This document shows, one piece after another, positions 1-60,399 of a DNA stretch of 64,000 nt; position 1 is the first letter of the stretch; each line of letters starts with the position of its first letter. The position numbers and the translations under genes were made by a program. Under the pieces are notes generated by a model. It saw nothing but the letters and a program-made list of their open reading frames with translations. It was not told where the DNA came from and did not search any database. Source of the DNA: Patescibacteria group bacterium (GTDB lineage: Bacteria > Patescibacteriota > Gracilibacteria > Absconditabacterales > Absconditicoccaceae); NCBI GenBank assembly GCA_017992195.1, contig JAGOPC010000003.1:5127-69126 (forward strand), given 5' to 3'.

Positions 1-805
1 GATTAATTATATTCTCTTGGAAGTGCTTGCAATGAAGACAGAAGAGGTGAAAGCTCTCAAGCAGAAAAATAATATGCTGAATGAGAAGAATGCTGGGTTA
101 CAGCAGACACTTAATATTATAAGTCATGATCTAAAAACTCCATTTAACAATATCATCGCTACTCTGGGACTTATTAACTCTCCTAACTTTTCAGACACCG
201 ATCTGAAAGAATGTCTGGGGATGTTAAGTACTACTGCTGTGAACGCATCGGAGTTGTTGAAACATCTGGCAGAATGGGCTAACAGCAACAGTCAACTGAC
301 TCCTGCGCCAAAGAAATTTAATATGGCAGATCATGTAGATCAAGAGATTGGTTTATTGAATACTGGTGCTTTGGAGAAGCATATCAAACTGGAGAATGCT
401 ATAGAAAAAAATATAGAAATCACTGCTGACCCAAACATGGTGGACCTTATCGTGAGAAATCTTATCAACAACGCGATAAAATTTACCCCTAATGATGGTA
501 AAGAGAGCAAGAGAAAGATCATCGTATCTTCTCAGTATGCCGAAGGTGGTGAAAAAGACTTTCTTGAGATATCTGTTTCTGATAATGGCGTAGGAATGAG
601 TCCAGACGTTCAGCAAAAAATATTTGCCGGTACTCACTTCACCAGCAAAGGGACCAAAGGAGAAAAAGGGACAGGACTATGACTAGCTATGTGTAAGAAA
701 TTCGTAGAAAAACACGGATGAAAGATCTGGGTAGAAAGCGAGCCAGGAAAGTGAACTACGTTTACGTTTACACTGCCTTTGTCTTTGGCGGAGACTCACG
801 CATAA
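1..805 (+). CDS. Sensor histidine kinase, C-terminal part (5' end lies outside the window)
   Basis: H-box SHDLKTPF, N-box NLINNAIKF, G1 DNGVGM. ORF 17..682 continues in frame through TGA at 680, 719 and 752. These fall on conserved Gly (GTGL-G-LAM, KHG-G-KIWVES, PGK-G-TTFTF). The frame ends at TAA 803-805 and is open back to base 2. Confidence 0.85.
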
Positions 806-930
806 TGTTTATTATAAACAGGGGGCGCTTCAGAGAGTAGCAGAGCAGATTTTCAAATAATAATTTCTTTATGTTAATTTAACCCAAAATCGCTACACTG
901 GTGATAACTATTTTACCAGTTTTCTTTTGC

Positions 931-3505: not shown

Positions 3506-5020
3506 ATGAAAATGGTGTTAACGAAGAGAGAGGAAGATTTTTCAGCGTGGTATAATGAGCTCGTAGAGCAGGCGCAGCTTGCGCAAGGTTCTGCCGTGCG
3601 TGGATGTATGGTGATCAGGCCGTATGGGTACGCGATTCGGGAGAACATGCAACAGACATTGGATAAGATGTTTAAGAAGACCGGCCATGTGAATGCGTAC
3701 TTTCCGTTGTTTATTCCGAAGTCGTTTTTCGCGAAAGAGGCGAAGCATGTCGATGGATTTGCGAAGGAGGCTGCGGTTGTGACTCATTACCGTTTGCGTA
3801 ATGACGGCAAAGGTGGGATCGAAGTTGATCCAGAAGCAAAGTTGGAAGAGGAGCTGATCATTCGCCCGACCTCAGAGACGATCATATGGAATACCTATAA
3901 GGATCGGATTCAGTCGTATCGCGATCTGCCATTGCTGATAAATCAGCGGGCAAATGTGGTCAGATGGGAGATGAGAACTCGTTTGTTTTTACGTACTGCA
4001 GAGTTTTTGTGGCAGGAAGGACATACGGCGCATGCGAGTGCTGAGGAGGCTATCGTTGAAGCGAAGAAGATGCGAAATGTCTATAAGGATTTCTTTGAAA
4101 ATTTCTTAGCACTCTCAGGAGTGCCTGGTGAAAAATCGGAAAATGAACGCTTTGCCGGAGCTGAAGTTACTTATACGATCGAGTGTTTTATGCAGGATGG
4201 AAAAGCGTTGCAGAATTGTACGTCGCACTATTTAGGACAGAATTTTGCTAAGGCGTTCGATGTTACATTTATGAATAAAGAAAATCAGTCGGAGTATGTC
4301 TATGCAACTTCGCGAGGAGTAAGTACACGTATGATGGGAGGTTTGATCATGTCACACTCAGACGATAAAGGATTGGTGTTGCCTCCTGCGATAGCTCCGA
4401 TCCATGTCGTTATCGTTCCTATCCGGAAGACAGAGGATGAGAAAGCGAGCGTACAGACATTTATTGACAAGAAAATTATGCCCCAGATACAGGCGGCGCA
4501 GTTCGTTGTGCATTCTGAATACCTTGGGGATGTGCAGATACCATTGAATGTGAAAATAGATCGGGACGATCAGAAAAGTCCAGGCTGGAAGTATAATCAG
4601 TATGAACTTCAGGGTGTACCGTTGCGCATCGCCGTCGGTCCAAGAGACGTTGCAAATGGCAGTGTCGAACTCGTTCGCAGAGATACCGGCGTGAAACATA
4701 GCATGACTATTATCGAGCTGCAGAAACATATCGACATCATGCTGCCGTCTATCCAGCAGGCGCTTCTCGAAAAAAACAAAGCGCTCAGAGAGCAAAATAC
4801 AGTCGTGCTCGACACGTATGATGAGTTTAAAAAAGCGCTTGATGAGGGCAAATTCGTTATGGCTCACCGAGATGGAACCGTCGCGACGGAGGAGCTTATC
4901 AAAGAGGAGACGAAAGGAACAATAAGATGTATACCAGTTGATGGCAAAGAGGAGAAAGGCGTTTGTATTCGTACAGGCGCACCGAGTAAGATGAGAGTGC
5001 TGTTTGCGAGAGCGTATTAA
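3506..5020 (+). CDS. proS: Prolyl-tRNA synthetase (archaeal/eukaryote-like class IIa type)
   Basis: 504-aa uninterrupted ORF with class II motifs, the block ...[27 protein letters not shown], and the C-terminal ...RCIP zinc-domain region. Five CGG/CGA codons fall on family-invariant Trp (see findings). Confidence 0.93.
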
Positions 5021-5085: not shown

Positions 5086-5207
5086 TTATGTAAAACTTTT
5101 GAATATTGGAATATTCTCCTAAGATGAGATTATATGGACGTTTTTAAAATTATGATTGAAAGATTTGGAGAAGGAGGTATATAGTGAAAATTCGCCCTTC
5201 TAAAAAG

Positions 5208-12640: not shown

Positions 12641-13579
12641 TTATTGGAATCGTGCCTTCTTTGCCTTATCAAGAAGATATCTTGTAGATCTTCACAATCC
12701 TGCTGAGCGATATCCTTTCAATGATTGACCTACACTGGCATCTTTCACTATAGATGTAATAGCTTTTTTTATCTGTTCCTGCATGATCGTTCTATCGTTA
12801 AATCTCGTTACTTCTCATGCTACCTCACGAAGATGGCTAGGAAGACTATAATAAAGATTCGCGGTCTCTCTTGGCTCAAATGTTTGTTGTATCTTATCGC
12901 CATTAAGTGCTTGAAGAATATCTTTTTTTGAGTTAATAATAGGTGCATAGATATTCTCAAATCCTTCCCGGCTCCCTTTCACGATTCTTCCTACTTTGTC
13001 TTTAGGTTCCCCTCTCAGCATTTTTCTGGAATCTCCCATATACGACAGGTTAGCAATCTTCATATAAAGATCCATCTTTGAGAACTCTTCTGGCAGGAAC
13101 AAGAGAGCAGTATTGACTGCACTATTTCGGTTATTTCTCATAGCCTCATCGATCTTTTCATTTTCCAGAATGGTCGCCATTGGCTTATGCGCTCTTCCTG
13201 CTACGTATAGATGCGATCGCTCATTGAGATCTCTGATCATATCATCTACTGAAATGACGCCATACTTTATCGTCTGTCCCTCGAATGGAACATAGGGATG
13301 ATAGTAGATCTTCGCACACGTTTCTTGTAATGCGTCGATGATCTCAAGCCCATGCTTCCTCGCATATTTTGAGTAATCATTCGCATTGTTTTCGAGATTT
13401 GCCTTATGCCACTCGTGCGTATTCTCTACCGGAAAAATTAAGTCTATCATATTCTTCTTACTGACATTTCACTCTTGAGTAAAAAGTCCTGAACCATATC
13501 CGTAAACTCCGTCCTTCCCTTTTTGCAAATTATACTTTGTCGTCAATATGTCCGGATCGAAAGATAGTTGTTTATTCAT
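12641..13579 (-). CDS. Tam41/Mmp37-type phosphatidate cytidylyltransferase (CDP-diacylglycerol synthase)
   Basis: ATG at 13579. Joined through TGA at 13469, 12815 and 12692. Tam41 hallmarks: GVYGYGSGLFTQ, DLIF.V....WH..NL, KYGVISVDDM, (W)SHLYVAGRAHKP, LSYMGDSR, EPKDKVGRIV. TAA at 12641. Confidence 0.75.
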
Positions 13580-13685: not shown

Positions 13686-14288
13686 ATGACCTACAATCCT
13701 TACGACCATTACTTTAAACAAGCGAAAAAATCCTGATATAAAGCCAGGAGTGCTTTCAAGTTGGAGGAGATTGATAAAAAGTACAAGATTTTTGATAGAA
13801 ATGTGAAGACAGTGATGGACATCGGTTGTTCGCCCGGCTCACGAATGCAGTATGTTAATGAAAACATGAAGAAAAATTCTATTAAAAATCCCGTTATCAT
13901 CGGTTTGGATATTAAACCCTCGACGGTTGAGATTCCCGGCGTTCATCGATATGTGCAGGATATTCAGGATACAGCAGCGGTTGGTAAGATAATTGGAAAA
14001 CATGGAGTGGAGAAATTTGATGCGATTATTTCTGATATGGCGCCGAATACGATCGGATTTAAGGATGTGGACGCTATAAGGAGTATCGAGCTTTTACGTA
14101 CGACATTGCCGTTGTATGCGCAGTTTCTGAAAGCCGGAGGCAAGGCTGTCATTAAAATTTTCATGGGTCCAGGCTTCGAAGAGTTTGTGAAAGAGTTTAA
14201 AGCGATCGTCGGTGACAAAAATGTGAAGGTCTTTAAGCCGAGCGCGTGCAGAAAGGAGAGTAAGGAGACGTATATTGTGAAGTTTTAA
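13686..14288 (+). CDS. rlmE: 23S rRNA (uridine-2'-O)-methyltransferase RlmE/FtsJ
   Basis: MTYNPYDHYFKQAKKS-G-YKARSAFKLEEID (TGA at 13734-13736). SAM motif DIGCSPGS(CGA)MQY, where the family has PGGW. ISDMAPN... Confidence 0.88.
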
Positions 14289-23027: not shown

Positions 23028-23843
23028 TTATACAAAGGCTTTCCCTATCTTTTCTTTCATGGTTTTTGCGTGCTGAGGAGAGTGGATGAGCTTGAGCGTG
23101 CAGGGAGTCTTCATCTTGATCAGCTGATAGAAGAACTCTTTTTTATATCATTCTAGATTCAGGATCGTCTGAAAGAAGAGCGTGAAGTTTTCTGTGATAA
23201 TCTTCGGGAAACTGCATTCGATAATATAGTCGCCGATAATATCGACCATGTAACCTTCCTCAGGAAAGGGTGAGTTGTCGGTGCAGACGGTTGTATAGAG
23301 TTTGTTATTTAAAATTTGTGATCCATATCTATCCAGATAATGAGTATTGCCGATAAGCATATAGGCATGCTCAAGTCAGCGCGCGATCTCCTCCATCGTT
23401 GCTTGCTCTTTTTGCGGAGCGCTGAGCAGATAGTAAGGATGCGATGAGTAGTGGTAGCTCACAGAGCATGGGTATATTTTGACGAGCTGACCGAGAAGAT
23501 CACTACGAATAATATTCAGATCGTGCAGATTGGCCTCAGTCCAGCTTTCCTGCTGGCCGACGGCAAGCTTTGCAATCGGGCTGTCCTGGTTCTCATTGAG
23601 ATGTCTTTGTATCCCATCAACCAGTCCCGCTATGTAGCGACTGAAGATCGAATGGATCTGTAGCTTGCCGTGTGGTCTTATTAGTATCTGGTCGTCGACC
23701 ATGTGTGCCACTATTTTATAAAAATTCGGTAAAGATACCGAAATTCATTTTGTGCAGACCTGTTGGTACAGCTCTTGCACGGACAAATTTTTGTACTTTG
23801 CAACTACGTCAATAATGGCGTAATTCACGCTTGTGTGGAACAT
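23028..23843 (-). CDS. Hypothetical wHTH-like protein, paralogue A
   Basis: ATG at 23843. Pieces joined via TGA at 23748-23750, 23376 and 23148. TAA at 23028-23030. Colinear with paralogue B (shared LPNFYKIV, YNSHPY/YSSHPY, NMEEI/TMEEI, PFPEEGY, IIGDYIIEC, HSP.HAK.MK.KI). Confidence 0.6.
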
Positions 23844-23996: not shown

Positions 23997-24815
23997 CTAA
24001 GAGAAGAACTTTTTGATTTTTTGTTTCATCTTTTTCGCGTGTTCAGGGGAGTGGATTACTTTGATACTGCACGTGTCTTTCATCTTGATAATATGTCCGA
24101 ACATCTGGACGTTGAAAGTATCAAGAGAGTTCACCGTATCAAAGAAGATCTGATAATGCTGGGCCACGCTTTGAGGTAGCGTACATTCGATAATATAATC
24201 TCCGATGATATTGATAAAGTAGCCTTCTTCCGGAAATGGAACATCATCGCTGCACTTTATCGTGTAGCCTTTCATGCTGTAGAGTGTGCTGCCGTACTGG
24301 TCCAGAAAGGTTGTATTTCCAAAGAGAAAGTATGATTTTTTTAGGCCGCTTCCTATCTCTTCCATGTTGGCCTTTTCTTTGTCGGTGATACTGAGAACAT
24401 GATACGGGTGAGAGTTATAGTAGAATCCTTCAGCATCAGGATATTTTTTTATCAGCTGCGTAAGAATATCCATCCAGATAACATCAAGATCGTACAAGCT
24501 TGACGCGCTAAAGGTTTGCTGGTCGCCCGCCTGCAGGGTCTCGACATTGTGTGTGGCGTTTGAAAAATAAGTCTTTTGCACATTCTCTGCGAGTTTGACG
24601 ATGAAGTGAAGATACATCGTGTGGATATGAAGTCTTCCTTTTGTTTTCACAAGTACCTGACTGTCAATCATACGTCCTACTATCTTATAGAAGTTAGGGA
24701 GGGAGACTTTCAGGTTTTTGCCGTTAGTGACGGAGGCATACAACTCCTGCACAGTGATGTCTTTTTGCTCGGCGAGCGCTGCGATAATGGCGTACTCAAT
24801 ACGGATACTAAACAT
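23997..24815 (-). CDS. Hypothetical wHTH-like protein, paralogue B
   Basis: Start placed at MFSIRIEYAIIAAL (24815) by homology with paralogue A; the ORF-track start at 24881 is probably too far upstream. TAG at 23997. Confidence 0.6.
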   Translation of the reverse strand: MFSIRIEYAIIAALAEQKDITVQELYASVTNGKNLKVSLPNFYKIVGRMIDSQVLVKTKGRLHIHTMYLHFIVKLAENVQKTYFSNATHNVETLQAGDQQTFSASSLYDLDVIWMDILTQLIKKYPDAEGFYYNSHPYHVLSITDKEKANMEEIGSGLKKSYFLFGNTTFLDQYGSTLYSMKGYTIKCSDDVPFPEEGYFINIIGDYIIECTLPQSVAQHYQIFFDTVNSLDTFNVQMFGHIIKMKDTCSIKVIHSPEHAKKMKQKIKKFFS

Positions 24816-36135: not shown

Positions 36136-37764
36136 ATGTATCGTCCGTGATGATTTCCGGAGTTTAATCCGAAACAACAAAAAGTATTTGATGGAATATT
36201 AGCAGTTATTACAAAAGTTTTTGAACAACAGAACTTTTCACATATCTGGACGCCAGCCGTGGAACCGGTAGAGATCTTGAAGAAAGGAGGAGATATCAAC
36301 GATAAACAAGTATTTGGTCTGTATGGTCTTGCTCAGTGAGTTGAAGATGTAAAGGACTACGCACTACATTTCGATCTCACCATTCCTCTCGCAAGATATA
36401 TTCTCGATCACAGGAACGATCTGACCTTCCCATTTAAGCGCTATCAGATGCAGCCGGTATGGCGTGGCGAAAGAACAAAGCGTGGAAGATTTAAAGAGTT
36501 CCGGCAGTTCGACGCCGATGTAACCCGGCCGTCCGACTCAAACGTAGGAGTTCGGTACGATGTCGAAACAGTAGCAGTGATGTCAAAGGTGATGGCTGCG
36601 GTCTGTCGTGAGTTCAACGTTACTATTAACACCGTATTGAAGATCTCGCATATTGGTTTGACGAAATCTTTTCTTGCAAGTTTCAAACTTGATGAGGAAA
36701 CAATAAACCAAGTATTAAATCTGCTTGATAATTACTATAAGGCAGACCATGCAACATTCGTTGAAAAGCTTTCAGCCGTTGTCCCAAATAATGTGTGCGA
36801 TGCAATCTACAAACTTATTGAGACCAAGGATATTGATCTTATGAAGGGCTATGAGCGTTATGAAGATATGAACGCTATATTAAATGGTTTGAAAGGCCTC
36901 AACGTGCCATACGAGTACGATATCTGTATCGTCAGAGGACATAACTACTATAGAGGAATGGTCTGCGAGTGGTTCGAAAAAGAGGACGTCTCATTCGGGT
37001 CACTTGCTGCAGGAGGAAGATATGACAATATCACTGACTTCATAGACAAGAAACAATCATTCAGCGGAGTAGGAACGAGCCTCGGAAGATTTATGTACCT
37101 CGCGATCGAAAAGATCGGAGAACTTCTGCCTCAAGAGTCATATATGTTCGTCAACTTTGAAGACACACTGCCTGATGTGTTGGCTCTTTATAATAGATTT
37201 CTCTCTGCAGGAAAGATCGTCGATCTCTACCCAACCGCCGCAAAGATCGGAAAGCAGTTTGAGTATGCCGATAAGAAGGGGGTGACTCATGTAGTTGTAT
37301 TATGAGCGGGAGAGAAAGAGAAATGAGAGTTTAAGATGAAGAATTTAAAGACATGAGATGAAAGAGTTTATACAATAGTTGATTGTTATGGAGCTATTGT
37401 ATTTCATGATCATAAAGTGCTCTTAGTCCAAAATCATCCTGGAGGCTGGGGATTTCCAAAGTGAAAGTGAGAGAAAGGAGAAAGCATTGATGATGCGCTT
37501 CATAGGGAACTCGAAGAGGAGACTGGTATCAAGAAAGTAAAAGCGCTTTCGGATATGACCTACCAGACAAGTTACTTCTATGATAATGGAGAACCAATAT
37601 TCAAAACTATTCAATATAAAGTATTTAACATAGAGAGTGACAAAGTGAAACTACAAACGGAGGAGCTTGCTAAATACGCGTGGGCAACACAAGAGGAGGC
37701 ACTGAGGCTGCTACCTCGTGATATGCATCACCTCATAGCTTCAGTCAAAGAATATTTCAAATAA
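36136..37764 (+). CDS. hisS: Histidyl-tRNA synthetase fused to a C-terminal Nudix hydrolase domain
   Basis: ATG at 36136. MYRP-GG-FPEF..., motif 2 region YQMQPVWRGERTKRGRFKEF(CGG)QFDAD, anticodon-binding end VVL-G-AGEKEK-G-EFKMKNLKT-G-DE. The same frame then continues into GGWGFPK-G-K-G-EKGESIDDALHRELEEETGI, a perfect Nudix box. There is no TAA/TAG before 37762-37764. Confidence 0.85.
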
Positions 37765-41967: not shown

Positions 41968-43221
41968 TTACAATGCTTTGACTGCATCGACGAAATGGTG
42001 GGCACGGTCGAGGTAGTCTTTGAACATGTCGAAGCTGGCACAGCCGGGACTCATGAGGATGATGTTGATTCAGTTTGCTTTTGCATAATCGTAGGCAAGT
42101 TGAACCGCCTGTTCGAGGGTCTCTCATTTAGCATGCTCGATTCCCATCTGTTCTGCGATGGTCGTAAACTGTGGACCGGTAGTTCCGATGAAGACTCAGT
42201 AGCCTATTTTTTGCTTCATTAATTCAGCGAGTGAACTGAAGTTGTCGCCTTTGTCTGATCCACCAGCTATTAAGACAATCGGGCCAGGGAAAGCTTCTAA
42301 GGCGACCCTCAGAGCCTGTGAGCTGGTCGCTTTGTTATCATCATAAAACCTGATGCCTTGTTTCTCAGCGATAAACTCGATCCTATGTGAGAGTGGTTTG
42401 ATGCTCTTCATAACGGCATGAATTGTCTCATCTGCAATGTCGATTCCATAATCAGCAAGCATCGCTTGTACGACGAGGTAGCAGACTTGTAGATTTCACG
42501 AATTATGTCCTCCGACAAACTGTGTCCCCTCGAGAGGATAATCGTTCCCATAAACAGTTAATGGGGCAGTATGATCGAGGGGTAGTCCAAGTTCCTCCAT
42601 CGCATCCAAAACGCCCTTCGTTGTAAAAACATGCATGGTGGTATGCGTGAAAAGTCTGTATTTTGTTGAAGTATAATCTTTCATATCAGTATGTCGATTG
42701 AGATGATCCGGAGAAATATTTGTCCAAACGCTATAATCAAAGAGGAGGTCATTCAATCCGTAGAGGAGGAACGACGAAAGCTCAGTGACGATGATATGCT
42801 TCTCATCGGTCAGGCCGCCATCAATAATATGATTCAAAGTCGTCGCGATAGACTCGTCAAAATTGCCGCTCAGCCGGATGTGATGGCTTGTATTCAACCC
42901 CTTGAGCAGCTCATACAGTACGTAGCAGGTCGTAGACTTCCCATCTGTCCCGGTAACTCCAACGAAATGGAGGTTGCTTCCCCGAGCTTGATTCTTCAGA
43001 AGCTGACCAATGAAATTGAGCTCTGAGATACATTTCGGGCCATATTTCATATAGATCTCGCTATCCGGTTTCATCGCCTGATGAACGATGATCTGTTCTG
43101 CGTTGCTGAATAACTCTTCGTCCCGTTCCTTATAGTCGATCGACTTTGCCTCGACACCAAAATGAGCGAGCAGTTTCTCGAGCGGTTCTCCGATCTTTCA
43201 CTTTCCGAATATAGCGATCAT
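41968..43221 (-). CDS. murD: UDP-N-acetylmuramoylalanine--D-glutamate ligase MurD
   Basis: MIAIFGK-G-KIGEP..., GVTGTDGKSTT, ...ILMSPGCASFDMFKDYLDRAHHF. Pieces 42496..43074 and 42196..42462 plus tails share one frame via five TGA codons (43198-43200, 42496, 42196, 42124-42126, 42070-42072). TAA at 41968. Confidence 0.85.
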
Positions 43222-49781: not shown

Positions 49782-52700
49782 TTAATACGACAGTAAGCTG
49801 CGAAGTCTTTCTATTCACATGGGATTCAACTGTCTTTCGATGTTTCCGATCTTCACCGTGTGTTCTCCTGGGTGATCTTTGATAACCTGTGCGATCGACT
49901 GAAACAGTCATGGGTTGTCGGGCAGCGCAAAGTGGAGCGGTCCGCCGATCTCTTCGTTGTTCATGTCGCTTGTTCCAATATTGCTTCATGAGGATTTCTC
50001 ATTATTTCAGCCTGTATCTGTATCTGAATCCTCATCTTCTTCGCTCAGTCCATCCGGGATCTTTTCAGTAAGCTCGATCTTGATCACCTCACCGGTTTCA
50101 GTATCGACAAGTTCGTCTTCGATGTCGGTTCCCATACTCAAAATATTCATTCAAAGTCTTGTCACCTTCACTTCACTTACTGACTCATCATTGTACTTAT
50201 TGGCTTTCTTCGCGTCTTCAACAACTTTCTCCAGAGAGGTCTTGACGATCTTGCTGACTTTAAGGGACTTATTTTTCCATCCTTCTATAATCAAAATATC
50301 AAACTTCTGAATATCCAGGGTCTCCTTCATAAATATTTCTATCTCGTCCGAGATATCTTCCACCGCCATAAAAAATCATTTCTTTTTTGCTCTCTGGATG
50401 TTCTTCACGTAGCAGAGGATTTTCACATTTCCAAATGGTTGCTCTTTATCGTAGTTCTTGAACATGCTGATCAATGAGAACGATCACTTGATGAACGGAT
50501 AGAGACCGTCAAATGGGTGACCTGAGACGAAGGTCTTGAAGACCTCGTATTCAGTCAGCAATCTTTCCATCTTAGAACTCTCTTCTGTTTTGTCCAGAGT
50601 GAGCGCGGGCTTGACCGCAGCCATGGCGAACAGGCTGTTTGCTGAGCTTTCCGCATTCGACATTTTGGTCCGGTCGATGATGCGGGACACATTATGCAAG
50701 ATCGTTTTACGATCCATGAAACCGTTGAATGCTCACGCTTTGGCAAGAGACTCGAGGGTCTTTTTGTTGATGATAGTTTGGCATCTTGTAAGAAAATCTT
50801 CGAGTGAAGTGTATGGTCAGTTTTTGCTTCTTTCGGTTTCGATGAGTTCGCTCACATCAGCACCGACTCCTTTAATACACTGGAAGCCGAGTCTGATAGT
50901 ATCGTCGACCGCGGCCACGTGCGAAAATGATTCGTTCACATGGGGAGGAAGAACCTTGTATCACTGGAGTTTTAATTCGTTAATGAATTTACTGAGTTTC
51001 TCAGTGTCTTCTTCCACAGACCTTAACAGCGCCGCATTAAACTCGATAGGGTAGTTCGCTTTGAGGTACGCTGTCTGATACGAGAGCATTCCATAGGTGA
51101 CTGAATGGGATTTGTTGAACGAGTAGAACGCTGCAGGTTCGATCATCTTCTCGTAGACCCACGTTGAGGTCTCCGCCTTGTACTCTCTGAAGGTAGCAGC
51201 CTTTTCGATGAACTGTCATTTGATCTGTTCGATGACCTCTTTAATTTTCTTTCCGATACCACGTCTGAGATTGTCCGCTTCGGCGAGCGAGAATCCGGCC
51301 ATCGCCTGTACGAGGAACATCAGCTGCTCCTGGTAGACGGCGATACCATACGTCAGTCCCAGGATCGGATCGAGATCCTCTCTGAGTTTTCTTTTTTCAT
51401 CTTCCGCTGTCGCCTCATCGTACTTCGCAACTAATATTTGATAGAGCTCCGGCAGCATATATTCGATCGCCTCCTTGCCGTGCTTTCTGTCGATATATCT
51501 CGGAATGAACTCCATCGGTCCTGGACGGTAGAGCGCACCCATCGCTATGATATCGTTCACATTATTCGGTTTCAGTTTTACCAAGAAATTTCTAATACCA
51601 TCTCCTTCAAACTGAAATACTCCTGATGTATCTCCCTTCTGTAAAACTCTTTCAAAAGTGTTCTTGTCGTCGAGCGCTGGTTCAAACACCATCGTCGCAA
51701 AATAGTCGGCAAACAGTTTTGGCAATTTCTTTCCTGACTTGGCATATTTTGCTCTCACGATCTTCATCGTGTTCTTGATGAGCGTTAGCGTCCTAAGTCC
51801 CAGAAAGTCCATCTTCAGAAGACCGATATCTTCGAGATCGTGTCATTCATATTGCGTCACCAGCTCCTTATGCACTTCTTCAGCGCCGGCTTTCCCTTGC
51901 GGCTTAGGCGGATGCTGCACAGGAGTATAGTGTGTAATTACTTCAGGAGCGATGATGATTCCACACGCATGGACGCCAGTTCCTCTCACTGTTCCTTCAA
52001 GCTTGATCGCCTCATCAAATGTCTTTTTGAGGATCGGATCGTTCTCATAAAGGTTGCGTAAATCTTCAGTCGCCTTCATAGACTCTTCGATACTTTTTTC
52101 GTTGATGAGCGAAGCGATAAAGTTCGACCTGTCGAACGGTATACCCATGGTTCTCGCAACGTCCTTGAATGCAGCACGCGCAGCCATGGTCATATAAGTC
52201 CCTACGTGGGCAACTTTATCTTTTCCATATTTCAGCGATACATATTCAACTACTTTATCTCTCTGTACATCTTCAAAGTCGACGTCGATATCGGGCATCG
52301 ATACACGGGCAGGATTCAAGAATCTTTCAAATAGCAGGCCGTATGGAAACGGATCCACATCCGTAATGCGCACAAAATACGCCATCAGCGAACCAGCAAC
52401 CGAACCACGTCCTGGCCCCACCGCGATATTGTTCGCTTTCGACCGGTTGATGAAATCCTGTACGATCAGGAAGTAGGTATTATAACCCATCTCTTTCACC
52501 ACCTTCAACTCGTACTCCAGACGCTCAATATAGTCAGCCACAGAGATCTCACCGTGCATCACATTCTTGTTATTTTCAATCAATTTCTTCTTGGTATCTG
52601 TATATGTTAATGTCGTGATCTCCTTCAACTCTGCAGGCGTCGTCTCCGTCAACTTTTTCGTCAATTGCCCCTGATCCGTAATCTGCACCATCCTCAAAAT

Positions 52701-52787
52701 ATCCTCGTCGGACCATCTATCCAGATCGAGTCTTCTCTTCATTCCTGTATACGACAAATAGCGCAGCTCAAACTCAAAAATATCCAT
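49782..52787 (-). CDS. dnaE: DNA polymerase III alpha subunit, C-terminal fragment (palm/thumb/fingers, HhH, OB; about 1001 aa)
   Basis: Starts MDIFEFELRYLSYTGMKRRL. An in-frame TAA at 52818-52820 lies upstream. Pieces 51843..52787, 51216..51812, 50961..51146, 50484..50717 and 50151..50369 plus a tail share one frame. AVGPGRGSVAGS, SMPDIDVDF, FDFLGLRTLT-type block, NKSHS. TAA at 49782. Confidence 0.9.
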
Positions 52788-53909: not shown

Positions 53910-55835
53910 ATGGCAGACAAAAAACCGCAGGAGTATGACGCATCCCAGATTAAGGTTCTCGAAGGTTTGGAGCCGGTGAGACAGAGACCTGGTATGTATA
54001 TCGGTTCAACGGATATCAGAGGATTGCATCACTTAGTATATGAAATTGTTGATAATGGTGTTGACGAGGCTCTCGGTGGACACTGTAAAAATATTTCTCT
54101 TGTCCTCAAAAAAAATGGATGGGTCGTCGTAAAAGATGACGGACGTGGTATCCCAGTCGGTATTGTAGGAAAGACAGGGAAGTCAGGTGTTGAAACTATT
54201 CTTACAGTATTGCATGCCGGAGGTAAGTTTGAAAAAGGTGCATATAAAGTTTCGGGAGGTCTTCACGGTGTGGGTGCTTCAGTAGTGAACGCGCTTTCAA
54301 AAGATCTCAAGGCAACAGTCTATAAAGACGGGCAAGAACATGTTATCACCTTCAAACGCGGTGTTGCAACGGGACCACTTGCAGTCGTTGGTAAGACAGA
54401 CGTTCGTGGAACAACTATCGAGTTTCTTGCTGATGATACGATTTTCGAGACAACAAAATACGTCTATGAAACCCTCGCAACGAGAATGAAATACGCAGCG
54501 TATCTTACGCCAGGTGTGACATTCACTATTACTGAAGAAGCAACTGGTAGAGCAGAAAGATTCTACTATGAAGGCGGTATCAAGACATGGCTGAGAAATC
54601 TTGTTGATGATCAAAAGCCACTTTCAGCACTTCACTACATCAACAAAGAAGGAAATGACGCTCTCGTAGAGATCTCATTCCAGTATGTGAACTCAAGCAA
54701 CGATAATGTCTTATCGTTCGTTAACAATATTAATACGACAGACGCTGGTACGCACGTTGTTGGTTTCAAGAATGCGCTCGTCAGTGTGATCAATGAGATT
54801 GCAAAAGCGAAAGGAAAGATCGACGGTAAGATCGGTGAGTTCCAGCCTTCTGATATTATCGAAGGTCTCTATGCGATCGTGACAGTGAAGATCCCTGAGC
54901 CTCAGTTTGAAGGACAGACAAAGGGTAGACTTGGTAACAGTTATGTAAGAAAAGAAGTTGAAGATATCGTGACCGCCTACCTCAAGAAAAATTTTGCAGA
55001 GAACGAAGAGGAGTTCAATTCGATCCTTGAAAGAATTACTCTTTCAGCGAGAGCAAGACTTGCTGCTAAGTTCGCGCGTGAAACGGTTCTGAGAAAAAAT
55101 GTACTTGCCGGAGGAGTTCTCCCAGGTAAACTTTCTGACTGTTCAAGACGTGGAAAGAACGGTACGGAGATGTATATTGTCGAGGGAGATTCAGCGGGTG
55201 GTACAGCGAAACAAGGTCGTGATAGTGAATTCCAGGCGATCCTTCCACTCAAAGGTAAGATCCTCAATACTGAGCAGGCGATGGTACAGCGTATCATGGC
55301 AAACGATGAAGTGAAGGCGCTTATCACTGCTATCGGAGCTGGACTTAAGGATATGTACGATGAGGAAAAATTACGTTACGATAAGATCGTGATCATGACG
55401 GATGCCGACGTTGACGGTGCGCATATTAGAACATTGCTCTTAACATTCTTCTTCAGATATATGAGACCGCTCATCGAGAATGGTCACCTGTTCATCGCTG
55501 TGTCTCCTCTCTATAAGATAAAGCAAGGAAAGAAAGAGGAGTATATTTATCCGATGGATGTTGAAGGTGGTGAGCTTACACATGCGCTGAAGAAGGCGGG
55601 TTTCAAGACAGAAGAAAAATATGAGATCCAACGTTATAAGGGTCTTGGAGAAATGAATGCAGAACAGCTCTGGGATACGACAATGGATCCTGCTAAGAGA
55701 AAAATGCTTCAGGTTACTGTAGACGATGCAGAGGAGGCTGATAAATTATTCAGAATTCTTATGGGCGAAGATGTGATGAGTAGAAAGCATTTCATCCTCA
55801 CACATGCGAAGAATGTAAAAGATCTCGATATCTAA
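53910..55835 (+). CDS. gyrB: DNA gyrase subunit B
   Basis: 641-aa uninterrupted ORF. YDASQIKVLEGLEPVRQRPGMYIGST, ..GGLHGVGASVVNALS.., EGDSAGG, PLKGKILN, DADVDGAHI. I found no in-frame TGA, CGA or CGG. Confidence 0.96.
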   Translation: MADKKPQEYDASQIKVLEGLEPVRQRPGMYIGSTDIRGLHHLVYEIVDNGVDEALGGHCKNISLVLKKNGWVVVKDDGRGIPVGIVGKTGKSGVETILTVLHAGGKFEKGAYKVSGGLHGVGASVVNALSKDLKATVYKDGQEHVITFKRGVATGPLAVVGKTDVRGTTIEFLADDTIFETTKYVYETLATRMKYAAYLTPGVTFTITEEATGRAERFYYEGGIKTWLRNLVDDQKPLSALHYINKEGNDALVEISFQYVNSSNDNVLSFVNNINTTDAGTHVVGFKNALVSVINEIAKAKGKIDGKIGEFQPSDIIEGLYAIVTVKIPEPQFEGQTKGRLGNSYVRKEVEDIVTAYLKKNFAENEEEFNSILERITLSARARLAAKFARETVLRKNVLAGGVLPGKLSDCSRRGKNGTEMYIVEGDSAGGTAKQGRDSEFQAILPLKGKILNTEQAMVQRIMANDEVKALITAIGAGLKDMYDEEKLRYDKIVIMTDADVDGAHIRTLLLTFFFRYMRPLIENGHLFIAVSPLYKIKQGKKEEYIYPMDVEGGELTHALKKAGFKTEEKYEIQRYKGLGEMNAEQLWDTTMDPAKRKMLQVTVDDAEEADKLFRILMGEDVMSRKHFILTHAKNVKDLDI

Positions 55836-55862: not shown

Positions 55863-56441
55863 ATGTTTCATATATTCAAAGGGCAGTTAGAGGTACACGG
55901 AGGCAGAAACTTCCTTACCAATGAGCTTTTTGGTATAGACGTTCAATATAATGGGACCCCTGCCTCAATGGCGGGGAAAAACGAAAAAGGAAAAGGAACC
56001 TGGTTCCTTTTTCCGTATATGGATGAAAATAATAAGACCATCCACTACTTTGCATTTGATACGATCGAGCAGAAGCAGGTCTTCGAGCAGATGATGAAGA
56101 TCTCTGGGATCGGACCAAAGACGGCATTTGCTATTGCCGCGATCGACAAAAAAGAGCTTCAGAATGCAATTGATACCTTTGATGTGAAGGCTGTACAGAA
56201 GATTCCTGGTGTCGGACCGAAAACTGCCAAGAGACTCCTTGTTGAGCTTAAGGCGACGCTTCGTACGTCTGACATCAAAAAACTTGATATTGATGATAAG
56301 CTCTTCAAAAGCATCGTCGCTACCATGAAAAACATGGGTCGGAATGCTAATACCGTCAGAAAGAAACTTTCAGAGTGTCCTATCCAGTTGGACAAAGAGC
56401 ATGTGCAGGAGATCGTCAAGTGGCTGATCGGGCAGGTCTAA
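55863..56441 (+). CDS. ruvA: Holliday junction DNA helicase RuvA
   Basis: OB-like N-terminus. HhH pairs ISGIGPKTAFAI and IPGVGPKTAKRL. 192 aa. Confidence 0.85.
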   Translation: MFHIFKGQLEVHGGRNFLTNELFGIDVQYNGTPASMAGKNEKGKGTWFLFPYMDENNKTIHYFAFDTIEQKQVFEQMMKISGIGPKTAFAIAAIDKKELQNAIDTFDVKAVQKIPGVGPKTAKRLLVELKATLRTSDIKKLDIDDKLFKSIVATMKNMGRNANTVRKKLSECPIQLDKEHVQEIVKWLIGQV

Positions 56442-57001: not shown

Positions 57002-57922
57002 TTATTTTATCTGCTGGAAGGTCTCATAGAGCTGGGTGATCTCTTCAGGGCTTTCGTAGGCTGGGAAGAGAAGCTGATGTAATGGGATCTGAACGTCGAT
57101 CATATCAATCAGTTGCTGATTGTTGCTTATCCATTCATCGATCATTTTCCCCTCGTAGCCATTCTTTTCAAGTGTTTTCATGACCTCTTCCTCACTCATA
57201 ATATGCCACGCGCCTTCTTTCTTCTTTCTGCCATGCTCGTAGTATTGCTTGCCGTCTTTGATACAGGTCGCAATATCAAAGGCGTCTTTGTCATCCGGCG
57301 CTATATAGTGAAAGTTGTTGTCGACAAGACATGGGATGGATAATGTTTGAGAAAGAGAGAGAATACAGCTGTCGATTTTTTTGATGAGGGGAAGTTCAAT
57401 GTGGGATTGTGCGGTGATCTCAAAGAAAAATTGGCCGGTGGGGAAGTAGGTCGCATACATTCACATGAGTTCTTCGACTTTTTTAGGGTTTTCGCCCTGT
57501 TGGATGAGTCGCGAAAGGTAGCTGCAGTCGCCTCCCACTATGCCGATGAGGTTCTCCGATCTGTCTTTGATCTTTTCCAATGGGAGCGAGGCGATCGTCG
57601 TGGTCGAGAGCGTATGAGCTTCTGAAACTATCTCCAATAAGGCACGGTATCAATCGTAGTTCTTCGCGAGAAGGGTCATATAAAACCCCCTGTCTGTTTT
57701 GCCATCCTTGACGACGTGGGTGCAGAGATCGACGCCAATCAAAGGTTTCAAGCCTTCTTTCTTTGCTATTTCGTACTGCTGTATGCTGCCGTACATACCA
57801 TTGTAGTCGCAGATCGGCATAGTTTCCTGACCAAGTGATTTGATCTTTTTGGCAATTGCCTTCAGATTGCCGATCGCCTGTAAGAGCGAATAATGACTAT
57901 GTCAGTGGATGTGGTTGAACAT
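57002..57922 (-). CDS. dnaE: DNA polymerase III alpha subunit, N-terminal fragment (PHP domain; 306 aa)
   Basis: MFNHIH-G-HSHYSLLQAIG (TGA at 57902-57904), CDYNGMYG, LIGVDL, MTLLAKNYD-G-YRALL, ...NNFHYIAPDD.... Ends at a genuine TAA at 57002-57004. An in-frame TAG lies upstream of the ATG. Confidence 0.88.
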
Positions 57923-58083: not shown

Positions 58084-60399
58084 ATGAGAACTTCTAAGAT
58101 AGCCTTGATAGGCTCTATTGTGCTGATGGCATGCGGCCTTGGTTTTGCGCATGCCGACTGACGAAATCTTCCGGGTGTGCCGATCGTGACGCGTGCTCAG
58201 CGGTGAGCTGATGAGACGATGAAATATGCGGATCATTACGAATATGCGAAGCTGCAGGAGAGCTGGGAAGAGGCGAGAAAATATATAACTGCAGCTCAAA
58301 AGGAGCAACAGGAAGCCGAATCTGAGAAAAGTAGCATAGCACGCGACTATGCGTTGAAGAATTTTCCGAGTGATATTTTGCTTGACACGACCGTTGCTAC
58401 TGAAGACGGTAAGGCACTTCGGTGGAAACACGAGTATCAGCATCAGAAGACAAAAATTATCGTCCATCACACAGTAAATGATATGGATAAATTTCTGACG
58501 GAAAATAAGGTGGAGTGACTGCTGCAGTCGATCTATAAGCTCCACGCATTCGGTAATGGTCGGTGAGATGTCGGCTACAATTTCATTATCTCTCCCGGTG
58601 GCATTATTTACGAAGGAAGAAGTGGTGGTGAATGAGTTGTGGGTGCACACGCAACCCGGAATAATCAGCCAAGTATCGGTATAGCATTAATTTGAAATTT
58701 TAATAATGATAAGCCGACTGATGCGCAGATAAAGGCACTTACAAATCTCATTACAGCGTTAGCGGCAAAGTATAATATTGATCCGGAAAGTAAGGCTGAT
58801 TGGCACAAAAAAACTGCTGTCTATCCCTATGTCTCAACATTTCAAAACTATACAGTGGTTGGTCATAGAGATGTCGGTGCTACGGCCTGTCCGGGTGAAA
58901 ATCTCTATAAACTCTTGCCTGCGATCCGTGATCGTGTCGACATGAATCTGAAGTCGGGTTCATATATAGCGACAGCGAATGCCTCAACTCCTTCAAAAAA
59001 TTCCTCGAACCAGTCAACGAGCAACATGTCTTCAAGTTCTCCCTCTTTGCCTGTAACAAAACCAAATAACATTATCACGCTACCGACGGTCTACAATACG
59101 GTGAAGGATAGTTATGCAATCCGCGTGCGTACTAGTGATATAACTACGGCGCTACCGAGATGCGAGATCATCAAGTGAGAGGTCGCTCTGGCGGGGTGTG
59201 TGTACCGTTCAGGAGAGCTTATTATGTGAATTAGAAAAAAGAACAGCGTTGTCGTGCCATGAACCGTGCGAATTAAAGTAACCTCTCGTGGTAAGCAGAT
59301 TACCTATGCGATGGAGGTTTCATGGGATGGAGCAGCGAGAAGTCAAGGATCGACAACTTCGACTAAGCCTGCCGCCCTCAGTTCTCCATCGACTATTGGT
59401 ACAACGCAAGGTTTACCTTCTCTGCCTGTTGGTAATAATCCTGTACTTGAGGATCTCAAAAGGAAATTTTCCATCACTATCCCGGGTAACACTATCAAGA
59501 TAGCATTGCCGACAAGTAGTTCTGATGCGCCGATGCTCATGAAGAAAAACATGAGTGTGCTACTGTATAATGCTTCTATGCAATCGTCATCGCGGACGAT
59601 CGCCTGTAATGGAGGATGTTCTCTTTCTAATGCGCCGTTCTCTCGTGTGACAGTCAGCTTTTCAGACGGGTTGTTAAAGGTTCAGAAAAATGGTTTGGTC
59701 TGGAATGAATCTATGCTGACATTGATCGCAAGCTCAGGTTCAACTTTTACTATCACTGATGCGTTAACGCAAAAACAGTATGGCGTCTACAGAGGAAAAC
59801 TCGACATTCTGACGCAGCAGATCAAGAAGATTGATGGCAACTATGTGACCCAATACGCTCTGGTGAATACGCTGCCACTCGAGCAATATTTAGCAGGTAT
59901 TGCTGAGGCTTCTGATAGTCAGCCGATAGAGAAGACGAAAGTGCTCGCATTGCTGACGAAAGCCTACGCGCTTTACTATGCAGGAGGAAGTAGTTCACAC
60001 CCTTCTATCCCGAAGTGAGTTGTCTATAACTCGATCGATGATCCTCGTTTCTTCCAAAAATATGTAGGTGTCACGCGAGAGCAGAGATCAAAGAACCGAC
60101 CCGTTGCACTTGAAGCGACTAAAGACAAGTATGTCGTCTATAATGGTATTCTTCCTATATTGCCTTATTTCCACTGTTCTCCTGGATTTACTCGGTCTGC
60201 TCGTGAAAAACGGGGTTGGAACGATACTCCGTATCTACAATCTATCCTCGATGAAACCGCTTCTGCGTGTACCAATTTTGAATGACATGGTGTAGGCTTG
60301 AGCGGTGAGGGCGCCAACAAAAAAGCAGAAAAAGGTGAAAGCGCAGAGGCGATAATTGCCTACTACTATCCCGGGACAGTAGTGCAGACGATTAGATAG
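58084..60399 (+). CDS. Secreted/lipid-anchored fusion protein: N-acetylmuramoyl-L-alanine amidase (Amidase_2/PGRP) plus SpoIID-type lytic transglycosylase domain
   Basis: Signal sequence MRTSKIALIGSIVLMACG. Amidase_2 region: RAQ(CGG)GA, IIVHHT, GNG(CGG)GDVGYNFIISPGGIIYEGRSGG, VGHRDVGATACPG. A Ser/Thr-rich linker follows. SpoIID region: EQYLAGIAEA, YVVYNG..LPYFHCSPGFT.SA.EK.GWNDTPYLQS, GHGVGLS. Pieces 58219.., 58855.. and 59266..60018 plus a tail share one frame through about 11 TGA codons. TAG at 60397-60399. Confidence 0.75.

Follow-up and report, generated by a model that had tools for sequence, protein, structure and literature searches.

CGA and CGG as probable tryptophan codons in a 64-kb stretch of an Absconditabacterales genome

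Which amino acid do CGA and CGG specify in an organism whose prolyl-tRNA synthetase (ProRS) has these codons where other members of the family have tryptophan? The question is raised by a stretch of 64,000 nucleotides (hereafter, the window) from an uncultured Patescibacteria group bacterium of the order Absconditabacterales (positions 5,127 to 69,126 of contig JAGOPC010000003.1). An initial annotation, made from the letters alone, proposed that CGA and CGG are read as tryptophan on top of the reading of UGA as glycine, and cited 11 codons in several genes. All 11 codons are in frame within long open reading frames (ORFs) and are CGA or CGG as described. Furthermore, column statistics, profile scores, and a codon-level comparison with recoded relatives agree with the proposal. 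We conclude that CGA and CGG are sense codons that very probably specify tryptophan, as UGG does. In the source organism, arginine is predicted to be encoded solely by CGU, CGC, AGA, and AGG, and UGA is predicted to encode glycine.

Results

CGA and CGG on tryptophan positions of prolyl-tRNA synthetase

The proS gene encodes an archaeal/Bacteroidota-type ProRS of 504 amino acids that matches PDB entry 1H4Q (E = 8e-142) and contains the Pfam domains tRNA-synt_2b, HGTP_anticodon, and ProRS-C_1. It has eight CGA or CGG codons and five TGG codons. Because the ORF has no in-frame TGA, its frame is unambiguous. We aligned the protein to 150 diverse representatives from a library of 1.8 billion proteins. 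We also compared its codons to those of six UGA-recoded relatives, which were identified by a ProRS scan of the species representatives in GTDB (r232): OZ246420.1 (82% amino acid identity), JAUIDC010000001.1 (80%), a metagenome-assembled genome from Absconditabacterales (70%), and three further contigs. The gene and its eight codons are as follows, with the family column and the codons of the recoded relatives or of Bacteroidota.

3506..5020, + strand: proS, prolyl-tRNA synthetase
3638..3640, + strand: CGG, residue 45 (YAI-x-EN); W in 128/134; TGG, CGA, or CGG in relatives and TGG in Bacteroidota
3905..3907, + strand: CGG, residue 134 (KD-x-IQSYRDLP); W in 116/142; TGG or CGA in relatives
3947..3949, + strand: CGG, residue 148 (INQ-x-ANVVRWE); W in 142/145; TGG or CGA in relatives
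4313..4315, + strand: CGA, residue 270 (TS-x-GVSTR); W in 119/133; TGG or CGA in relatives
4868..4870, + strand: CGA, residue 455 (MAH-x-DG); W in 71/110, with F in another 19; TGG or CGA in relatives
4073..4075, + strand: CGA, residue 190; a clade-specific tryptophan position, Leu or Ile in other phyla; CGA in most recoded relatives, TGG in one (L015), and CTG in the outgroup
4424..4426, + strand: CGG, residue 307; an aromatic position, TGG in three relatives (L014, L016, and L018) and TAT or TAC in Bacteroidota
4562..4564, + strand: CGG, residue 353; CGA or CGG in 5 of 6 recoded relatives and GAT in the other (L021)

The first five of these codons are the ones that had been claimed to lie on tryptophan positions of the family, and tryptophan is indeed the majority residue in all five columns (from 71/110 up to 142/145). 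Such columns are scarce: just 9 of the 504 positions have a tryptophan majority in the ProRS family, and the chance that at least five of eight random positions would fall on them is 2.6e-8. In ProRS from Thermus thermophilus (PDB 1H4Q), tryptophan is opposite four of the five codons, and an apicomplexan ProRS has tryptophan at the fifth. Furthermore, at every tryptophan column of ProRS, the codons TGG, CGA, and CGG interchange among the six recoded relatives, while the Bacteroidota outgroups use TGG only.

The initial annotation suggested column-wise codon statistics as a check, and in ProRS these came out in its favor: 5 of the 8 CGA and CGG codons are on tryptophan columns and none are on columns with an arginine or lysine majority, as compared to 19 of the 22 CGT, CGC, AGA, and AGG codons. 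Its statement that invariant arginines use other codons was also borne out. The RDLP motif of ProRS has CGC, the LLRSGRFDR motif of FtsH has CGT, AGA, and CGT, and the AGRAHKP motif of the Tam41-like protein has AGA. As it also noted, gyrB lacks in-frame CGA and CGG, and TGG is retained for tryptophan.

Codon exchange with recoded relatives

If CGA and CGG are synonymous with TGG, then these codons should replace each other in orthologous genes. We aligned 37 genes from the window to their orthologues in related UGA-recoded genomes, with TGG, CGA, and CGG all masked to X, so the alignments are not biased by the codons under test. Because the comparison is of codons, it is independent of the translations in the databases. 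The codons that are aligned to each class of codon in the window are as follows.

Window CGA (98 aligned pairs): TGG 52, CGA 29, CGG 5, CGY or AGR 2, Lys 0
Window CGG (121 aligned pairs): TGG 67, CGA 33, CGG 9, CGY or AGR 0, Lys 0
Window TGG (177 aligned pairs): TGG 115, CGA 28, CGG 9, CGY or AGR 1, Lys 1
Window CGY or AGR (899 aligned pairs): TGG 1, CGA 0, CGG 0, CGY or AGR 674, Lys 107

Taking CGA and CGG together, the 219 partners include 119 TGG codons and 76 CGA or CGG codons, along with just 2 of the other arginine codons. (Fisher's test on the codon pairs gives p of about 3e-139, with the pairs not being independent of each other.) Exchange between the two groups of codons is very rare, and therefore CGA, CGG, and TGG form one synonymous class and CGY and AGR another.

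Tryptophan positions in other protein families

For 10 proteins, we made two translations, with CGA and CGG read either as arginine or as tryptophan, and we scored both versions against Pfam. Summed over non-overlapping domains, the scores rise by about 48 bits if the codons are read as tryptophan. The gains, by domain, include:

FtsJ: +9.4 bits
ProRS-C_1: +9.2 bits
Flavodoxin_2: +9.0 bits
Tam41 (Tam41_Mmp37): +8.0 bits
NUDIX: +5.3 bits
tRNA-synt_2b: +4.4 bits
Radical_SAM: +3.5 bits
DUF1967: +3.3 bits

Individual sites outside of ProRS can be compared to homologues as well. These include a site in murD that was absent from the original list.

13842..13844, + strand: CGA, rlmE (SPGS-x-MQ); read as Trp, with W in E. 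coli RlmE and a gain of 9.4 bits for FtsJ
13217..13219, - strand: CGA in the Tam41-like gene (NE-x-SHLYVAGR); support at the level of the family, from the gain of 8.0 bits for Tam41_Mmp37 with all four CGA and CGG codons read as Trp
52443..52445, - strand: CGG, core of dnaE (FIN-x-SKAN); read as Trp, with FIQWSKDN in E. coli DnaE
58201..58203, + strand: CGG in the amidase/SpoIID gene, residue 40 (RAQ-x-GA), read as Trp; W in 103/117 homologues
58561..58563, + strand: CGG in the amidase/SpoIID gene, residue 160 (GNG-x-GDVGYNF), read as Trp; W in 94/120 homologues, F in 6, Y in 3, R in 17
42694..42696, - strand: CGA in murD, residue 176 (DHLN-x-H), read as Trp; W in 98/119 homologues
36502..36504, + strand: CGG in hisS, residue 123 (KEF-x-QFD), not diagnostic; R in 3NET and Y in both 6NHI and 3HRI, and tRNA-synt_His loses 1.0 bit with Trp

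Thus, the proposed tryptophans in rlmE and dnaE are matched by tryptophan in E. coli, and both sites in the amidase gene are tryptophan in most homologues. For the Tam41-like gene, the claim holds at the level of the family's profile. The codon in hisS had also been offered as a witness for tryptophan, but it is not informative.

Some homologues do have arginine at these sites. In the amidase/SpoIID protein, arginine at residues 40 and 160 is confined to the closest 32 matches, which appear to be recoded relatives. Similarly, all 21 of the arginines that align to residue 176 of MurD are within the 54 best-scoring of 120 matches, and none are in the more distant remainder. Arginine only among the closest homologues is the pattern that would arise if CGA and CGG were mistranslated in the public databases. 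MurD from E. coli has arginine at the equivalent of residue 176, which is an apparent counter-example; this seems to be an idiosyncrasy of E. coli. More broadly, a comparison to E. coli K-12 across 12 regions is too weak to be informative alone: of 15 alignable CGA and CGG codons, 2 are opposite arginine and 6 are opposite an aromatic residue, and even the TGG codons of the window are rarely opposite tryptophan. At the position of residue 123 of the hisS product, we take E. coli HisRS to have histidine.

UGA as glycine, and codon usage

The ORFs of the window contain 166 in-frame TGA codons, and most genes have them (dnaE has 12 and the amidase gene has 11). If TAA and TAG are the only stop codons, then non-overlapping ORFs cover 91% of the window. 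Where they can be aligned, 17 of 38 TGA codons are opposite glycine in E. coli, and 149 of 189 are opposite GGN or TGA in related genomes. Because TGA aligns with glycine, GGN, and TGA, UGA is probably a glycine codon in this organism, as it is in candidate division SR1 and Gracilibacteria.

Across all ORFs in the window, the usage per 10,000 codons is about 39 for CGA, about 40 for CGG, and 72 for TGG. CGA and CGG would account for 53% of the tryptophan codons. The tryptophan content of the window is 1.5% if CGA and CGG encode tryptophan and 0.7% otherwise. The main arginine codon is AGA, and UGG is still in use.

Points against, and other explanations

Several observations weigh against tryptophan as the meaning of CGA and CGG. 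At residue 353 of ProRS, the Bacteroidota outgroup has GAY (Asp) and no relative has TGG. Residue 123 of the hisS product is not a conserved tryptophan in its homologues (R, Y, and Y in the PDB structures). Residue 704 of the amidase is arginine or lysine in Peregrinibacteria-type homologues, and W, Y, or L in the closest relatives. When tryptophan is used, four Pfam domains show small losses of 0.5 to 2.1 bits. The GC content of the window (0.43) is outside of the range reported for the reassigned clades (0.26-0.38). The 64-kb window contains no tRNA genes, and we found no tRNA(UCG) or tRNA(CCG) in the roughly 200 kb of DNA from recoded relatives that we reached via homologues of ProRS, MurD, and the amidase. 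Finally, a low level of ambiguous decoding as both arginine and tryptophan is possible.

Ambiguous decoding on a large scale would mean that the codons are mostly read as tryptophan with a substantial fraction of arginine, or that CGA and CGG differ in meaning. Wobble of a tRNA(UCG) onto CGU and CGC is conceivable, as is misacylation; a few CGA and CGG sites have arginine or lysine in distant homologues; and the Codetta screen gave CGA as tryptophan but CGG as arginine or "?" in some Absconditabacterales assemblies (PMC8629427). In the window, though, both codons occur independently on invariant tryptophan columns of ProRS (CGG at residues 45, 134, and 148; CGA at residues 270 and 455), and TGG is the partner about equally often for each (53% for CGA, 55% for CGG). 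Because about half of the tryptophan positions use CGA or CGG, frequent misreading would be costly. We consider ambiguity of a large extent to be unlikely.

The standard meaning of these codons, with many conserved tryptophans truly replaced by arginine, is less probable still. Translation with NCBI's genetic code tables 11 or 25 does give arginine at these sites, and the closest homologues in the databases show arginine in the same columns. However, all of those database arginines are from UGA-recoded relatives, whose genes have CGA or CGG, and in no case CGY or AGR, at the sites in question. Similarly, in the alignments of orthologous genes, none of the 899 CGY and AGR codons pair with CGA or CGG, while 119 of the 219 CGA and CGG codons pair with TGG. 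Arginine at buried and nearly invariant tryptophan sites in several independent genes (ProRS, MurD, and the amidase) is implausible, and the profiles prefer tryptophan by the 48 bits given above. We rejected real replacement of tryptophan by arginine because CGA and CGG are kept apart from the other arginine codons and exchange freely with TGG.

We know of no C-to-U editing of mRNA in bacteria that affects about 0.8% of all codons. Such editing could restore CGG to UGG without a change in the code, as the two codons differ by a single first-position C/U, but we rejected it as the least credible explanation: CGA is equally frequent at tryptophan columns and, once edited, would be UGA, which is glycine here, and tRNAs with UCG and CCG anticodons and tryptophan-type features were reported from related genomes (PMC8629427).

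How CGA and CGG might be decoded

With tryptophan as the preferred meaning of both codons, a plausible route to it comes from the literature on Absconditabacteria and not from the window. In a previous survey, most assemblies of Absconditabacteria had tRNA(UCG) and tRNA(CCG) with features that are consistent with charging by tryptophan (G73 and no A20), and every listed assembly had tRNA(GCG) but no tRNA(ACG) (PMC8629427). By analogy, the organism may have dedicated tRNAs with the anticodons UCG and/or CCG and with the identity elements of tRNA-Trp (a G73 discriminator base and no A20), which would be charged by tryptophanyl-tRNA synthetase. The CCG anticodon would be just one base away from the normal CCA. 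Because a UCG anticodon reads both codons, CGA and CGG would be reassigned together. A tRNA-Arg(GCG), which lacks inosine, would read CGU and CGC only. After such a capture, a single transition would convert TGG to CGG, and changes between CGG and CGA would be synonymous. Such synonymous gains of CGA and CGG might then have piled up as the GC content rose, until they made up about half of all tryptophan codons.

The tRNAs that we did find at the related loci are for Lys, Trp(CCA), Met, Gly, Phe, Ile, and Pro only. The tRNA-Trp(CCA) of the relatives has A1:U72 and G73. A flavodoxin-like gene in each of the two closest genomes has tRNA-Lys(CTT) and tRNA-Trp(CCA) directly upstream of it (L014, 7864-8126; L015, 6198-6403). 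The corresponding spot in the window (2-930) lacks a tRNA and is occupied by part of a histidine-kinase gene, its 3' end (2-805).

A search of metagenome contigs with the pattern GCTCAG-N(1,2)-GGTAGAGC-N6-YTYCGNA yielded mitochondrial and plastid tRNA-Arg(UCG/CCG), and in viral contigs the same pattern yielded phage tRNA arrays or tRNA-Arg. Several contigs of marine mitochondrial type (L164, L157, L117, L168, L153, and L192) have a tRNA(UCG) without A20 and with G1:U72 and U73; these are false positives and are unrelated to the window. The accessible portion of the supplements of PMC13092985 does not give a sequence for a tRNA(CCG) from Absconditabacterales.

Discussion

A known code at a higher GC content

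This code is already known and is not new. The initial annotation stated that Shulgina and Eddy had used Codetta to infer that CGA and CGG had been reassigned to tryptophan in this group, and correctly so: their 2021 study predicted both UGA as glycine and CGA/CGG as tryptophan for Absconditabacteria (SR1) (eLife 10:e71402; PMC8629427). The same code was recovered in 2026 by the KACI k-mer screen (bioRxiv 10.64898/2026.04.02.715157). In another preprint from 2026, reassignments of this kind still have the status of computational predictions, and our search of the literature found no experimental or proteomic validation of CGA or CGG as tryptophan. The novelty is low because the code has been known since the 2021 prediction: the window leaves knowledge of the code itself unchanged, and what it adds is the GC content and the codon usage of this lineage.

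The window shares all three reassignments with the published Absconditabacteria code, and likewise has the reassigned codons on conserved tryptophan columns, AGA as the main arginine codon, and UGG retained. It differs in its GC content, which is 0.43 (with a local range of 0.40-0.45) as compared to 0.26-0.38 for the published assemblies. It also differs in the usage of CGG, which is about 40 per 10,000 codons (all ORFs) as compared to at most 24 in the published assemblies (aligned Pfam domains). CGA, at about 39 (all ORFs), is near the published maximum of about 41 (aligned Pfam domains).

Two other codes are instructive. NCBI's table 25, for SR1 and Gracilibacteria, has UGA as glycine, and UGA in the window is indeed read through and aligned with glycine. 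In contrast, this table keeps CGA and CGG as arginine and would mistranslate about 157 codons of the window. In Anaerococcus and in the RFN20/Onthovivens Bacilli, as in the window, an arginine codon has been captured by tryptophan, and the proposed route is a tRNA with the anticodon CCG, one base from CCA (PMC8629427). In those bacteria, however, just CGG is reassigned and CGA remains arginine, via tRNA-Arg(ICG). In the window, CGA also lies on tryptophan columns and exchanges with TGG, and UGA is glycine.

Possible re-expansion of captured codons

We see about even chances that this lineage, which does not have a species-level representative in GTDB r232, represents the most advanced stage known for the capture of CGA and CGG by tryptophan. 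This idea is based on the preponderance of CGA and CGG over UGG as the main tryptophan codons (53%), on the usage of CGG at roughly twice the published maximum, and on a GC content that is above the low range thought to have enabled the reassignment. If true, then captured codons are re-expanding as GC pressure reverses. The window also suggests that codons, once reassigned, can come to outnumber the original codons for the same amino acid.

We also examined codon shares against GC content in the relatives and the window (L014-L018, L021, and the window itself; these are window-scale and not genome-wide figures). The CGG share of tryptophan codons is 2% at a GC content of 0.275, 6-9% at 0.37-0.41, and 17% at 0.39 in the relatives, and 26% at 0.43 in the window. 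Over the same series, the usage of TGA (per 10,000 codons) drops from about 390 to about 95. The rise of the CGG share with GC content across the relatives fits the idea that the captured codons are re-expanding.

There are practical consequences as well. Under table 11 or 25, about 0.8% of the residues encoded by this genome would be given as arginine instead of tryptophan, in many cases at invariant tryptophan positions of the core or the active site. The public entries for the closest homologues, which appear to be from recoded relatives, do have arginine for tryptophan at conserved tryptophan columns. A table that NCBI does not offer is therefore needed for this clade, whether genes are to be annotated, structures predicted, or proteins expressed in another host. 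Bacteria have few sense-codon reassignments, and the window is a clean and codon-rich case of one. It would also be a good target for experimental proof, as ProRS alone has eight such codons.

Gene content and nearest relatives

The best named homologues of the window's proteins are from Absconditabacterales, Absconditabacteria, or SR1. (Absconditabacterales is an order within the GTDB class JAEDAM01.) The source lineage is not itself a GTDB species representative, and the 82% identity given above is that of its closest ProRS. Collinearity with both JAUIDC010000001.1 and OZ246420.1 extends over nearly the full length of the window. OZ246420.1 is labeled "Candidatus Peribacteria" at NCBI, and its gene calls are broken up (for example, gyrB is in two pieces), which is consistent with translation by table 11. 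The recognizable genes of the window are:

proS, ftsH, rlmE, der, tig, obg, rlmN
a penicillin-binding protein (PBP) gene, hisS, dnaB, murD, gyrA
split dnaE, gyrB, ruvA, the amidase_2/SpoIID gene
an ELP3-like radical-SAM gene, holB

Beyond the six recoded relatives, nearly all of the best matches to ProRS are from Bacteroidota, at about 60-63% identity, and the 80 best ProRS loci among GTDB representatives do not include any non-recoded lineage of the candidate phyla radiation. The distribution of these matches suggests an old transfer of proS between the recoded group and Bacteroidota.

The dnaE gene is split into two genes (49782-52787 and 57002-57922, both on the - strand), one for the PHP domain and one for the polymerase core. 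Between them, on the opposite strand, are gyrB (53910-55835) and ruvA (55863-56441). JAUIDC010000001.1 has the identical split and the same gene order, and in JAPLUT010000002.1 a stand-alone PHP gene adjoins the amidase gene.

HisRS (36136-37764, + strand) has a C-terminal NUDIX domain within a single ORF. It is just 43% identical to the HisRS from JAUIDC010000001.1, which is 430 amino acids long and lacks the NUDIX domain, while most other orthologues are 70-88% identical. Thus, hisS could be a replaced or fused gene. Finally, two tandem genes on the - strand (23028-23843 and 23997-24815) encode clearly similar paralogues of about 272 amino acids each.

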